In this document: piece by piece, positions 9,305 to 36,267 of the stretch
How positions within the stretch are numbered: position 1 is the first letter of the stretch
Layout of the letters: each line of letters begins with the position of its first letter
NCBI GenBank assembly: GCA_051418015.1
Contig: JBPRGF010000014.1
Location: 58,101 to 122,100, forward strand
Direction of reading: 5' to 3'
DNA from: Candidatus Nitrospinota bacterium M3_3B_026
GTDB taxonomy: Bacteria > Nitrospinota_A > UBA7883 > JBPRGF01
DNA: 64,000 bases
Made by a program: the position numbers and the translations under genes
The notes under the pieces: model-generated
The model's input: only the letters and a program-made list of their open reading frames with translations
Databases searched by the model: none
Told to the model about the DNA's origin: nothing

Positions 9305-11266
9305 TCAGGCCCTCGCGGCGCCGGACTCTTTCCAATCTACCAAAAAGATGTCGTAGCGGACGCCCTCCAGCCCCTTGATCTCGGCCCAGCCTATTTCCCG
9401 GAGAACGAACCTGGGGTCGTCCTTGATGGAGTTGTAGACAATGTATGAGACCAGCACGCGGTTCACCAGCGGGAAATCCACAGGGTCCACGTTCAGTTGC
9501 ATGAATGACTCCGGGCCGAGCCTCTCGATCCTCGAAGCGGCGTTCACCGGCACGCCGAACCGGTCGTTGTCATGCCCCACCCTGGTCTCTCCGAAGTCGA
9601 TCCCCACCCGGACGTTTATCCTGTTTTTCTCGTCCGCCCTCCGGTTGTAATCTTCCAGCTCCTTCAGTGTCTCCACGGCCGCGCTGACGGCGTCGGCGTT
9701 GCTCTCGAAAACGCCCATGAACCCGTCGCCCAAGCCCTTTTTGTACGCGAGGCCGTTGCGCGAGGCCTTTTCGCTGAAAATCTTGTCCAGCGAACTGAAC
9801 AGCTTGAAGAAATGGTATCCCCCGTAGACGTTCATTATCTCCGTGGAGCCTGCCACGTCCAGGAACAGGATCGACTCCGGCCGGGAGTCTTTATACGGCG
9901 AGGCGGGGATGGATGGCGCCTGGAGCGGCTTTGACGGGATCGAGGGTGGAGCGTCCCCGGCGGAGCTTGCGGCGGACACTTTTTCTATGAACTCGGCCAC
10001 TCTTTCGGCGCTCCCCCTGAGGGATTCGTCGGCGAGCTTGATGAAGGTCTCGTAGTCCTTGACGGCTTCCCCGGACAATCCCATGTCATACTTCGCCTTG
10101 CCCCTGTTGTGATAGGCCGGGGCGAAGCTGGGGTTGAGCCGTATGGCCTCGCTGTAGTCGGCGACGGCTTCCTTCTTGAGGCCTAAGTCGGACCTGGCGT
10201 TGCCGCGGTTGTTGTAGGCGGCGGCGTAGCTCGGGTCCAGTTGCGTGGCGGCGTCGTAGTCGGCTATGGCCTCTTCCTTCAATCCCATGTATGAGAGGGC
10301 GTTCCCCTTGTTGTAAAAGACCTGCGGCATGTTCGGCTTCAGCCTCAGGGCCTCCTCGTAGTCGGCGACGGCTTCCTTTTTGAGACCCAGGTCGGACTTG
10401 GCGTTGCCCCGGTTGTAATAGGCCGCGGCAAGATCCGGGTCCAGCTCTATGGCGCGGTCGTAGTCGGCTATGGCCTCTTCCTTGCGCCCCAGGGCGGATT
10501 TTATGTTTCCCCTGTTGTTGTACGCCAGGGCGTAATCCGGACCCAGCTCTATGGCGCGGTCGAAATCGGCTATGGCCTCCTCGGCCCTGCCGAGGTCGTA
10601 TTTAGCGTTCGCCCTGTTGAAAAAGGCCACGGCGTAACGGGGACTGAGTTCTATGGCCTGGTCGTAGTCGGCTATTGCCTCGTCTTTTCGCCCCAGCGAG
10701 TCCTTGGCGATGCCGCGGTTGTTGTACGCCTTGGCGAGGCCGGGGTCCAGGCGGATGGCCTGGTCGTAGTCGGCTATGGCCTCCTCCTTGCGCCCCAGGG
10801 CGGCCTTGGCGCTGCCGCGGTTGTTGTAGGCGGCGGCGTGGGAGGGGTTCAGGCGTACGGCCTGGTCGTAGTCGGCTATGGCCTCCTCCTTGCGCCCCAG
10901 GGCGGACTTGGCGTTGCCACGGTTGTTGTAGGCCACGGCGTAGTTCGGGTTCAGCGCGAGCGCCTGGTCGTAGTCGGCTATGGCCTCCTCCTTGCGCCCT
11001 AGGGCGGACTTGGCGTTGCCCCGGTTGTTGTAGGCGGCGGCGTAATCGGGGTTCAGCTCTATGGCGCGGTCGAAATCGGCGATGGCCTCCTCCCTGTGGC
11101 CCAGGGCGGCCTTGGCGCTGCCGCGGTTGTTGTAGGCGGCGGCGTGGGAGGGGTTCAGGCGTATCGCCTCGTCGAAATCGGCGATCGACTCCCCGGTCTG
11201 CTTGTTTTTATATTTTTCGACGCCTTTTTCGAAATATTGTTTCGCTTTTTCCGTCTCGTTTGACAT
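9305..11266 (-). CDS. TPR-repeat protein (about 12 x 34-aa repeats) with C-terminal class III adenylyl/guanylyl cyclase domain
   Basis: Repeated 'AIADYDQAIELNPDYAAAYNNRGNAKSALGRKEE' units. The C-terminal domain carries 'FLDVAGSTEI', 'GDGFMGVF', 'VRVGIDFGE' and 'GVPVNAASRIE' (cyclase homology domain). 653 aa. Confidence 0.88.
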   Translation of the reverse strand: MSNETEKAKQYFEKGVEKYKNKQTGESIADFDEAIRLNPSHAAAYNNRGSAKAALGHREEAIADFDRAIELNPDYAAAYNNRGNAKSALGRKEEAIADYDQALALNPNYAVAYNNRGNAKSALGRKEEAIADYDQAVRLNPSHAAAYNNRGSAKAALGRKEEAIADYDQAIRLDPGLAKAYNNRGIAKDSLGRKDEAIADYDQAIELSPRYAVAFFNRANAKYDLGRAEEAIADFDRAIELGPDYALAYNNRGNIKSALGRKEEAIADYDRAIELDPDLAAAYYNRGNAKSDLGLKKEAVADYEEALRLKPNMPQVFYNKGNALSYMGLKEEAIADYDAATQLDPSYAAAYNNRGNARSDLGLKKEAVADYSEAIRLNPSFAPAYHNRGKAKYDMGLSGEAVKDYETFIKLADESLRGSAERVAEFIEKVSAASSAGDAPPSIPSKPLQAPSIPASPYKDSRPESILFLDVAGSTEIMNVYGGYHFFKLFSSLDKIFSEKASRNGLAYKKGLGDGFMGVFESNADAVSAAVETLKELEDYNRRADEKNRINVRVGIDFGETRVGHDNDRFGVPVNAASRIERLGPESFMQLNVDPVDFPLVNRVLVSYIVYNSIKDDPRFVLREIGWAEIKGLEGVRYDIFLVDWKESGAARA

Positions 11267-11333
11267 AATTTATAATCTTAGCAAAATATCTCTGCTATAA
11301 GGTTGAAATCAGGTAAATAACGTTTTTTGCCGT

Positions 11334-12059
11334 ATGACGCGGGAATCGCCGAGCCTTTTCGAAAACGCCCTTGTCCAGACCCTGGCCGAGCGCATCGGGC
11401 CGTCTTTCAACGTGACTCTGACCGACAACAGGAGAACCCTTATCTCCATAAGGGAAAAGAATGGCGCGACACACGTCAGGCTCTCCAGGATATTCGCCCT
11501 TGCCGACGAGGCGACGACCCGCGGCCTGGTCTTGTACATAAAAGGGAGGGCAAGACGCCTGCCGAGGAGCGTCACGGCCTTCGTCAGGACCCAGCCTCCG
11601 CCTCCCCGGGCCGTCCGTAAAGCCGTTGAAAAACTGGCCCCGAAAGGCAAAGTCCGCGACCTTCGGGACGTAGCCGGGAGGATCGACAAACGCTATTTCG
11701 GCGGCTGCGCCGGGAGGGTGAGGATCACCTGGGGCAGGCCCGCGCCGGTTATGAAAAAACGCCGCGCCCAGAAAAGCGTCCGGCTGGGGTCATACGACTG
11801 GGAGTTCGACCTGATAACCGTGAATCCCGTCCTGGACTCTGCGTCTGTCCCCGTCGAGGTGTTGGAACTGGTCGTGTATCACGAGATGCTCCACAAAAAA
11901 CTCGGCAGGAGGGTGGGGCGCGACGGCAGACTTCTGGCGCACACGCCGCTGTTCCGCGCGCTGGAGCGCAAATACGAGCGTTACGAGCAGGCCGTGGATT
12001 GGGAAAGGAAGCATATATGGAAGGCGCTGCGGCCGGCTCGCGGCGGGCGAAGGCCGTAG
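11334..12059 (+). CDS. DUF45/YgjP-like HExxH zinc metallohydrolase
   Basis: 'VVYHEMLHKK' HExxH motif followed by H..LF....Y......W..H spacing typical of YgjP/M48-like proteins. 241 aa. Confidence 0.55.
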   Translation: MTRESPSLFENALVQTLAERIGPSFNVTLTDNRRTLISIREKNGATHVRLSRIFALADEATTRGLVLYIKGRARRLPRSVTAFVRTQPPPPRAVRKAVEKLAPKGKVRDLRDVAGRIDKRYFGGCAGRVRITWGRPAPVMKKRRAQKSVRLGSYDWEFDLITVNPVLDSASVPVEVLELVVYHEMLHKKLGRRVGRDGRLLAHTPLFRALERKYERYEQAVDWERKHIWKALRPARGGRRP

Positions 12060-34924: not shown

Positions 34925-35475
34925 CAAAAATCCTTCCAAGAGTCATGAGCTCCACGCGGCGCCGAGAGAACAGTATAGCAAAGCCGGTCCGCCAGGCTCT
35001 CCCACCGCCGGGCAAAAACGGGCTAAAGCCAGCGCCGCTGCCCGCCGATAAAAATACCAGAACACGAGCTGGGTAAACACCCGCGATGGATTGCGGGCTT
35101 ATGCTCAACCATGGAGGGTTTTTGTCATGTCTTCAGTGTCAGGTGGTTCCTTTTCGCAGGGAGAGGTTAAGCTTCTCCGGGCGACTCTTGCCCCCAGGTC
35201 ACTCCCCAAGCTGGGAGAGGGGCTGAATCTTTTCAACGCTCCGCCCCAGGCCGCTGGGAACTCGCGGCTGATGCTCGAGACCCAGGGTGCCAATATCTCC
35301 GTGCGCGCTTGAACCCGCGGCGCCCGCCCCGGCGCCGTGGCCACGCGCCAATGATACCCGTCCTCTTTTCGCCCGCCCCGATCCGCGGCCGCCGGATGGC
35401 CGGATGTCCCTCGAAAATATTTCGAACAATATTTTACGAAATTAGTTGTAATTAGCTATAAATGTGATTATAATG

Positions 35476-35503
35476 TTGACAATTTATATGGCATAAATAT
35501 AAA
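35476..35503 (+). promoter_or_regulatory. Strong sigma-70-like promoter (TTGACA-N16-TATAAA) inside a 230-bp AT-rich island
   Basis: TTGACA at 35476-35481 and TATAAA at 35498-35503. The 35345-35575 region is about 25-30% GC against a background of about 65%. Confidence 0.45.
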
Positions 35504-35576
35504 ATCTGACTATTAGTTAGTTAATTTAGAGATAAGTAGTATGTAATAAATGTAAAAGATCTGAGGAAAACAGCGT

Positions 35577-36179
35577 TTGAAAGGCTCCAATCGCGTCAGG
35601 ATCGAATGCAGAAATCCCAGGTACGCGGACAGAGAACTCAAAGAGCACCTGCTGGAGCTTGTCCATTATTCCAGGTACGCGGGCATAGAGCCAGCGGGGT
35701 TGCGGCAGGCCATATCCGGGGCGGATCTGGAGTTCGGGAGGCAGGGCCCGGATTTGCGGCATGGAGGCAAGCTGATACTGGAGGCCGACCAGAAGACGGC
35801 GAACCTCATCGGTCAACTGGTTCAGATGTATCCCGTGTTCACGATGTGGGATATCAAGGTTTTTAAAGAGAGGGTCAAACCAGCTAGGGGTAAAACCAAG
35901 GCAAAGAAGAAGGAGAAGAAGATGGCTGCGACCAAGAAATCCGCCGCTAAGAAGAAGACGGCCAAAAAGAAACCGGCCAAAAAGAAGGTAGCCAAGAAGA
36001 AACCGGCCGCCAAGAAAAAGACGGTCAAGAAGAAGGCCGCCAAGAAATCCGTCGCCAAGAAGAAGACGGCAAAGAAGGTGACCAAGAAGAAGGCCGCCAA
36101 GAAAAAGACGGCCAAGAAGAAGACCGCCAAAAAGAAAACGGCAAAGAAGAAGACCGCGAAGAGGAAAAAGTCCTCCTAG
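35577..36179 (+). CDS. Histone H1-like Lys/Ala-rich DNA-binding protein
   Basis: TTG start with GAGGA RBS. The C-terminal 85 aa is a pure (A/T/V)KKK(T/A)AKKK repeat tail. An internal ATG at 35922 (MAATKK) has a perfect AAGGAG RBS and could yield a short form. Followed by a strong terminator. Confidence 0.6.
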   Translation: MKGSNRVRIECRNPRYADRELKEHLLELVHYSRYAGIEPAGLRQAISGADLEFGRQGPDLRHGGKLILEADQKTANLIGQLVQMYPVFTMWDIKVFKERVKPARGKTKAKKKEKKMAATKKSAAKKKTAKKKPAKKKVAKKKPAAKKKTVKKKAAKKSVAKKKTAKKVTKKKAAKKKTAKKKTAKKKTAKKKTAKRKKSS

Positions 36180-36229
36180 CGGGGGTTTTTCCAGGGAACG
36201 GTTTTTTCTTTAGACTGTTTCGTTTTTAT

Positions 36230-36267
36230 CCGGCCGGAGCCGTGAAAAGCTCCGGCCGGTTTTTTTT
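36230..36267 (+). terminator. Rho-independent terminator shared by convergent genes
   Basis: CCGGCCGGAGC..GCTCCGGCCGG hairpin followed by TTTTTTTT. Confidence 0.78.

Follow-up and report, generated by a model that had tools for sequence, protein, structure and literature searches.

In several bacterial proteins a folded domain is joined to a repetitive, disordered segment, rich in Lys/Ala(/Pro/Thr), through which polyanions are bound; among them are the HU-tail proteins (mycobacterial Hlp/MDP1, Streptomyces HupS), DdbA and Pseudomonas PhaF. DdbA of Streptomyces combines H1-like and DksA-like domains (PMC3643593). AlgP, Hc1/Hc2 and the H1-like proteins of Burkholderia and Bordetella (NF038053) have a similar tail composition with short Lys-rich tandem repeats, and in chlamydial Hc2 the repeat number varies between close strains (PMC2848022). 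Internal in-frame starts giving N-terminally truncated isoforms have also been documented in bacteria, in genome-wide maps (bioRxiv 10.1101/520783; PMC11005335). Here we analyse a gene for a protein of the same layout, a folded domain followed by a Lys-rich segment, in a 64,000-nucleotide stretch (the window) of contig JBPRGF010000014.1 from Candidatus Nitrospinota bacterium M3_3B_026. The window protein was 100% identical to a hypothetical protein of that bacterium. Our best explanation, in which we place slightly better than even confidence, is that the locus is a single-gene unit encoding a Nitrospinota-specific basic protein in two isoforms, the tail of which would bind DNA or another polyanion.

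Two candidate starts in one reading frame

The original prediction proposed two usable starts, a TTG at 35577 giving 200 amino acids and an ATG at 35922 giving 85, and indeed both sites are present and have conserved features (Table 1). Homologous loci were pooled from the window, the encoding contigs, and genome and metagenome scans. After identical N-terminal domains (N-domains) had been collapsed, there were 18 distinct loci in the clade of the window (clade A) and an outside set of 16 distinct loci, formed by clade B and one intermediate lineage. The first start in clade A was TTG in 16 of the 18 loci, at the same codon (nine before the invariant E10), GTG in two and ATG in none, and residues 2-4 of the long form (K-G/S-S) were conserved. 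Outside clade A an ATG stood at or near the same position in 15 of 16 loci, the remaining one having GTG. An internal [A/G]AGGAGA-N5-9-ATG-GCN at the boundary of linker and tail was present in every clade A locus (18/18) and absent outside (0/16). The corresponding protein motif, E-x2-3-M-A, was found in 17 of 17 clade A proteins and in none of 45 clade B proteins.

Table 1. Features of the locus, with positions counted from the first nucleotide of the window
Feature	Coordinates	Strand	Description
AT-rich island	35411..35576	.	166 bp, 23.5% GC; promoter region and 5′ leader
A/T tract with inverted repeat	35414..35435	+	AAAATATT-N6-AATATTTT; 8 nt, 100% complementary
Promoter P1	35446..35474	+	TTGTAA-N17-TATAAT; 10/12 consensus matches; start expected near 35481
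Promoter P2	35476..35505	+	TTGACA-N18-TAAAAT; 11/12 matches; start expected near 35510-35512
5′ leader	35482..35576	+	about 95 nt from P1; AT-rich, unstructured
Shine-Dalgarno sequence of first start	35563..35567	+	GAGGA; 9 nt before TTG 35577; predicted anti-Shine-Dalgarno pairing -6.1 kcal/mol
Coding sequence of long isoform	35577..36179	+	TTG start; 200 amino acids, 22.5 kDa, isoelectric point 10.8
N-terminal globular domain	35577..35876	+	residues 1-100; predicted ferredoxin-like beta-alpha-beta-beta-alpha-beta fold
Internal Shine-Dalgarno sequence	35910..35915	+	AAGGAG; 6 nt before ATG 35922
Predicted short isoform (tail alone)	35922..36179	+	85 amino acids, 9.3 kDa, isoelectric point 12.0, charge +46; in frame
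Tandem array	35949..36166	+	15-nt units, about 14.5 copies; (A/T/P)KKK-type pentapeptides (Tandem Repeats Finder)
Intrinsic terminator	36230..36267	+	11-bp stem with 10 GC pairs (36230-36259), then T8

A first alternative is that only the full-length protein is made, the internal AGGAG...ATG being kept for elongation pausing or for an E-x-x-M-A peptide motif, such as a protease or modification site where domain and tail meet, and the TTG setting a modest level of expression. Clade B and the intermediate lineage work with one fused protein that has no internal Met, the E and the M-A are invariant at the amino-acid level too, and initiation at 35922 is a prediction from sequence. However, the linker around the internal site is variable, yet AGGAG is unchanged. 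Where the residue before the Glu changes from K to E (L009-L011, L030), AAG GAG becomes GAG GAG and AGGAG stays intact. The NAG-GAG codon choice likewise does not vary, and this holds at a genome GC of only 37-45%. In the rest of these genes AAG makes up 38-71% of the K codons and GAG 29-100% of the E codons, and the chance of an invariant NAG-GAG, taken as a product over 7 lineages, is about 5e-4. The spacing to the ATG is held to 5-9 nt, the second codon is always GCN, and the internal site is gained exactly where the first start has ceased to be ATG. We consider production of the full-length protein alone to be possible, if somewhat unlikely.

Predicted anti-Shine-Dalgarno pairing at the internal site was uniformly strong (-8.7 to -9.1 kcal/mol), and at the first start it ranged from +0.4 to -11.2 kcal/mol. 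The internal initiation region was predicted to be less structured than the TTG region in every locus, less structured also than the average coding window of the N-domain, and in the gene described here to form the least structured 60-nt stretch of the mRNA. A dual start calls for a conserved Shine-Dalgarno sequence and start codon within the reading frame at proper spacing, and on the aligned sequences the clade A genes contain both. Their co-retention across the 18 lineages indicates that both start features are maintained, and the gene of this clade probably makes a long protein and a tail-only protein.

As a start codon, UUG is usually weaker than AUG. From one mRNA, the weak TTG would give the less abundant 22.5-kDa long form, and the ATG behind its perfect AAGGAG would give the tail-only form of 9.3 kDa. 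The weak first start may also cut the traffic of elongating ribosomes over the internal site. We tentatively suggest, with somewhat less than even confidence, that one clade of Nitrospinota rewired an ancestral single-product basic protein by changing ATG to TTG at an unchanged codon position and acquiring a perfect Shine-Dalgarno sequence with ATG where domain and tail meet, and that one mRNA would thereby set the ratio of an organiser and a free coating peptide. The long product would act as a multivalent organiser, an N-domain oligomer bearing several tails, and the short product as a free H1-like coating peptide.

Domain family, tail and likely function

Matches to the tail alone would be uninterpretable for its low complexity. 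With the N-terminal 115 residues as query, nine proteins were found (E = 1e-29 to 1e-69), the identical hypothetical protein among them. An exhaustive phmmer search of 1.84 billion cluster representatives returned only seven matches, and a profile search returned 58 clusters, all with E <= 5e-28. Since nothing weaker lay beyond these, the family is, as far as sequence similarity reaches, small and sharply bounded. It comprises at least 63 uncharacterised proteins of 135-204 amino acids, all with an N-domain of about 95 amino acids, a variable linker and a Lys-rich tail. All sources of the family that carry an organism name were Nitrospinota or Nitrospinae. The scan of species-representative genomes gave 15 loci, one per genome, in Nitrospinota, Nitrospinales or Nitrospinaceae; three bins carry the label Nitrospirae and one only 'bacterium'. 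Nitrospinota are the main marine nitrite oxidisers. Homologues without the N-domain had been named in the original prediction as an observation that would tell against the full-length protein. None was found among the family members, and the full-length protein is therefore genuine. Literature searches on histone-like or nucleoid-associated proteins of Nitrospina/Nitrospinota found no paper on the chromatin proteins of the phylum and nothing on this family.

The N-domain is under protein-level selection, with pairwise differences across 12 clade A genes of 0.33/0.22/0.57 at codon positions 1/2/3 and with 51% of identical residues encoded by different codons. Ten residues were invariant over 59 sequences (E10, R15, E27, Y31, Y34, G36, Y85, P86, F88, W91). 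Given the family alignment as input, AlphaFold2 (AF2) modelled the domain alone with a predicted local distance difference test score of 86 and a predicted template modelling score of 0.76, in the topology beta-alpha(alpha)-alpha-beta-beta-alpha-beta. Pfam and NCBIfam scans of the whole protein, the N-domain and 16 family members gave only sub-threshold compositional matches, and the best match in a profile search against PDB sequences had E = 0.75. Foldseek searches of the PDB with the full-length and N-domain models matched CutA1, PII, PII-like, ACT and designed ferredoxin folds. Template modelling scores were 0.4-0.56, E-values 7e-3 or worse and identities 8-20%. Because the designed ferredoxin folds score equally well, the models support only the fold class. 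GlnB-like (PII/CutA) and ACT domains, the best Foldseek neighbours, have the beta-alpha-beta-beta-alpha-beta topology predicted for the N-domain and a loop between beta2 and beta3. Their template modelling scores were 0.45-0.56, with E-values of 7e-3 to 3e-2 (none <= 1e-3) and root-mean-square deviations of 4-7 Å, and no sequence-profile match was found. CutA1 and PII-like proteins form trimers, and nucleotide or effector binding at the subunit interfaces is a mark of the GlnB-like superfamily. The window protein is a two-domain basic protein built on a new Nitrospinota-restricted domain family.

The tail (residues 116-200) consists of 53% Lys and 22% Ala, with a net charge of +46 and an isoelectric point of 12, a composition that bears out its earlier description as H1-like. 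With an AF2 score of about 50, it is best read as disordered. Among homologues its length ranged from 28 to about 90 residues. In two loci, L006 (4001-4468) and L007 (3001-3477), the N-domains are identical and the upstream DNA nearly so, with two substitutions in the 200 bp compared, yet 9 nt separate them within an AAAKPAKK repeat tract (155 vs 158 amino acids). The repeat number of the tail therefore changes over short evolutionary distances, in a manner resembling the variation of Hc2.

The likeness to Hc1/AlgP-type nucleoid proteins did not extend to family membership. The Hc2 family (Pfam PF07382) matched the tail only, at 18.2 bits (E = 0.0028), below the gathering threshold of 40 bits. 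The Burkholderia H1-like family NF038053 also matched the tail only, at 19.9 bits (E = 7e-4), below the curated cutoff of 80 bits. Pfam Linker_histone gave no match at E <= 1, and the predicted fold of the N-domain is not a winged helix. No match to the HU/IHF domain (Pfam Bac_DNA_binding) was found in the N-domain of any of the 16 family members. Membership of the Hc2, Burkholderia H1-like or linker-histone families was not supported, the matches being sub-threshold and compositional. None of the sequence-family models applied matched the window protein above its threshold.

The best reading of the product is that of an abundant polyanion-binding, probably nucleoid, protein. Indirect signs of a nucleoid protein are the tail charge of +46, the conserved near-consensus promoter and the terminator. 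Transcription would begin in the A/T-rich region, at P1 and, in the subclade of the window, also at P2, and would end at the intrinsic terminator; the gene is presumably highly expressed. In the manner of H1-like tails, the tail may attach electrostatically to DNA, the commonest target of such tails, or to another polyanion. The N-domain may oligomerise or sense a ligand, which would let the long form bridge or organise whatever the tail binds.

Several points weigh against this interpretation. The case for promoter use and internal initiation comes from conservation, and the paired start features have a single evolutionary origin, so that the 18 loci are not 18 independent events. Lys and Glu codons readily form Shine-Dalgarno-like strings, purine-rich sequence is unstructured by nature, and E-x-x-M-A could be a conserved peptide motif, for instance one for processing. 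Oligomerisation by analogy with CutA/PII is speculative, given fold matches as weak as these (E >= 7e-3, 8-20% identity). Finally, a Lys-rich tail does not identify its target, and the H1-like AlgP acts on polyphosphate granules (PMC9239181).

The last point leads to a second alternative, in which the product is not a chromatin protein and the tail targets polyphosphate granules, RNA/ribosomes or storage granules (as in PhaF), with the N-domain as an adaptor. H1-like tails do occur in proteins with such roles, AlgP being known to space polyphosphate granules (PMC9239181). Tail composition alone cannot separate the targets, and ligand- and RNA-binding modules commonly have a ferredoxin-like fold. 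However, no polyphosphate, polyhydroxyalkanoate or ribosomal genes were conserved among the neighbours. Strong promoters and terminators would fit an abundant structural protein of any such kind and do not discriminate. We regard a target other than chromatin as unlikely.

Promoter region, terminator and neighbouring genes

The mean GC of the 64-kb window was 0.62 (standard deviation 0.065 in 100-bp windows). Its lowest 100-bp value, 0.19-0.20, fell at about 35402-35583, where values ranged from 0.19 to 0.30, a local drop of more than 6 standard deviations. The AT island of the original prediction is therefore real, and it is the lowest GC trough in the window. Its proposed length of 230 bp did not hold, as the edges lie at about 35402/35411 and 35576/35583 (roughly 170 bp) and the first 55 bp of the proposed interval (35345-35400) still have 75% GC. 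A trough of 0.14-0.30 within the 150-200 bp before the start codon was found in every clade A locus with enough upstream sequence (L001-L012), in host genomes spanning 45-62% GC. The comparison supports the reading of the AT island as a promoter region, the core of which keeps its place and its sequence ahead of the orthologues.

The earlier suggestion that the island and its histone-like gene came by horizontal transfer is very improbable. In its favour, the GC drop exceeds 6 standard deviations and gene GC is 0.53 against 0.62 for the window, but the low gene GC follows from the AAG/AAA-rich tail. The named homologues are all Nitrospinota with a single locus per species-representative genome, and malic enzyme and indole-3-glycerol phosphate synthase (IGPS, trpC) genes adjoin the gene both here and in L003-L006. 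The AT trough and promoter block recur at orthologous sites, and no integrase, tRNA or flanking repeats were noticed.

Two further compositional features were observed. A perfect tandem duplication (GCCGGATG GCCGGATG, 35391-35406) at the GC-rich edge before the island is probably trivial. The second lowest GC trough of the window (11174-11368, minimum 0.29) lies between divergent genes, a tetratricopeptide repeat/cyclase-like gene (minus strand, start 11266) and a plus-strand gene (start 11334). This trough has the look of an ordinary divergent promoter region, and it has no sequence block in common with the island at 35.4 kb.

A promoter scan gave 4 promoter-like sites where shuffled sequence would lead one to expect 0.9, although counts of this kind are inflated by AT-rich DNA. 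The P1 hexamers and their spacing were found 115-147 bp ahead of the start codon in most clade A loci. The clade-wide form was TTG[T/A]AA-N16/17-TA[T/C]AAT, and the spacer TTAG.TGTAAAT was kept too. The alignment of upstream regions had an invariant core, TT.GTTG.AATT.....T.AAT.....TA.AAT, preceded by an A/T tract. Among loci whose host genomes span 45-62% GC, the distance of the block ATTTTAAAAAATTAGTTG[A/T]AATTA...TAAAT...TA[T/C]AAT was fixed.

P2 starts two bases past the -10 hexamer of P1. Its -35 hexamer TTGACA lies at 35476-35481, and its -10 can be read as TAAAAT at 35500-35505 (N18) or as TATAAA at 35498-35503 (N16). The TTGACA-N16-TATAAA promoter reported earlier is thus present in sequence. 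It is confined to a subclade, having been found only in the window, L004 (TTGCCA...TATAAT), L008 and L012, and the clade-conserved promoter is P1, directly upstream. The subclade of the window probably has tandem promoters P1 and P2. The inverted repeat of the A/T tract is placed about 11-32 bp before the P1 -35 hexamer, roughly -46 to -67 from the expected P1 start, and the block GAAAATAtTTCGAAc.ATATTTTA of this tract recurs in L004 and L009-L011. We infer that it is UP-element-like or an operator.

A riboswitch or other leader RNA was considered and dropped. RNAalifold predicted no consensus pairs in the leader of 11 loci, the single-sequence fold of the leader was no better than shuffles (z-score 0.19), and when the leader and the 3′ region were scanned against Rfam, nothing but sub-threshold noise near the terminator came up. 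The leader contains a minimal start-stop, ATG-TAA (35541-35546, plus strand), with no clear Shine-Dalgarno sequence before it. This was found at the aligned position in L004 and L005 and was absent from L003, L006 and L008.

The strong terminator of the original prediction, convergent with the arsS operon, was recovered, with arsS on the minus strand. An equivalent hairpin and T-run lay 54-101 nt past the stop codon in all 12 clade A loci examined, and no comparable strong terminator was found in the 8 clade B loci (0/8). Since the terminator occurs in clade A but not in clade B, the structure of the transcription unit changed along with the start-codon arrangement. Within the coding sequence, a 12-bp hairpin followed by CAAGGTTTTT (35828-35854, plus strand) was flagged as terminator-like. 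Its stem is partly forced by the conserved peptide, TATCC (Y-P) pairing with GGATA (W-D-I), and it is probably incidental.

The upstream minus-strand gene encodes the malic enzyme. The convergent downstream gene was identified as arsS (TIGR04167, 363 bits against a cutoff of 300), and an arsenosugar-associated peroxidase-like gene lies behind it. From these comparisons, the locus is a single-gene transcription unit, vertically inherited, with conserved promoter and terminator signals. Minus-strand open reading frames at 35526-35816 and 35822-36130 and one in the +2 frame at 35606-35866 were treated as shadows, the codon-position pattern supporting the annotated frame.

Small neighbouring genes were also observed. 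A 61-amino-acid open reading frame (35127-35312, plus strand), in the interval separating the malic enzyme gene from the AT island, had no Pfam match. It was 57% identical over 47 amino acids to a called 60-amino-acid gene at the same position in L004 (2469-2651), and 60-amino-acid genes were also called beside the malic enzyme gene in L003 and L005. It appears to encode a conserved small protein. In 7 of 8 clade B genome loci (L014-L017, L019-L021; not L018) a highly conserved 126-amino-acid protein (79-100% identity) is encoded just upstream of the family gene, at about 150-700 bp (e.g. L021, 2462-2845), and on the same strand in 6 of the 7. It has weak CI-repressor/helix-turn-helix similarity (E = 1e-3), is better conserved than the basic protein and is absent from the window and the clade A flanks. 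It may be a partner or regulator.

Comparison with known systems

The globular domain described here is unlike HU, DksA or phasin; it has no Pfam/NCBIfam match and is restricted to Nitrospinota. The predicted short isoform would resemble stand-alone basic proteins (AlgP, Hc1/Hc2, Burkholderia/Bordetella H1-like), but the matches to the Hc2 and NF038053 families are compositional and lie far below the family cutoffs, and no homology is demonstrable. The eukaryotic H1 C-terminal domain is similar in Lys (about 50%), Ala, Thr and Pro content, predicted disorder and high net charge. Unlike eukaryotic H1, the window protein has no winged-helix globular domain, and the resemblance is one of convergent composition and not of membership. 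A dual start was not found in the papers on DdbA, AlgP and Hc2 that a literature search returned, and the other H1-tail fusions (HU-tail, PhaF) are not known to have one.

With its unannotated domain, the family is a concrete candidate for a protein that organises the nucleoid or another polyanion in one lineage. It is also a clean case, backed by conservation, in which a strong internal start accompanies a weak first one. Confirmation would lengthen the growing list of N-terminal proteoforms in bacteria, and would mean that the ratio of scaffold to free tail can be encoded in a single open reading frame. If the proposed function holds true, a bacterial chromatin (or polyanion-organising) module not described before would have been built on a domain family that is equally new. 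Should only the long form be made, there would still be a new domain family with an H1-like tail, a result useful for annotation and unsurprising.

Among genes with two proteoforms, IF2 alpha/beta, ClpB and CheA long/short are comparable in that one open reading frame has a second Shine-Dalgarno sequence and ATG giving a C-terminal isoform. The window gene differs from these in that its evidence is comparative, in that its short product would consist of nothing but the disordered basic tail, and in that a non-ATG first start goes together with the internal site throughout the clade. Fusions of a domain to an H1-like tail are already known, and the closest description of what is new here is a Nitrospinota domain with an H1-like tail and a conservation-supported dual start.

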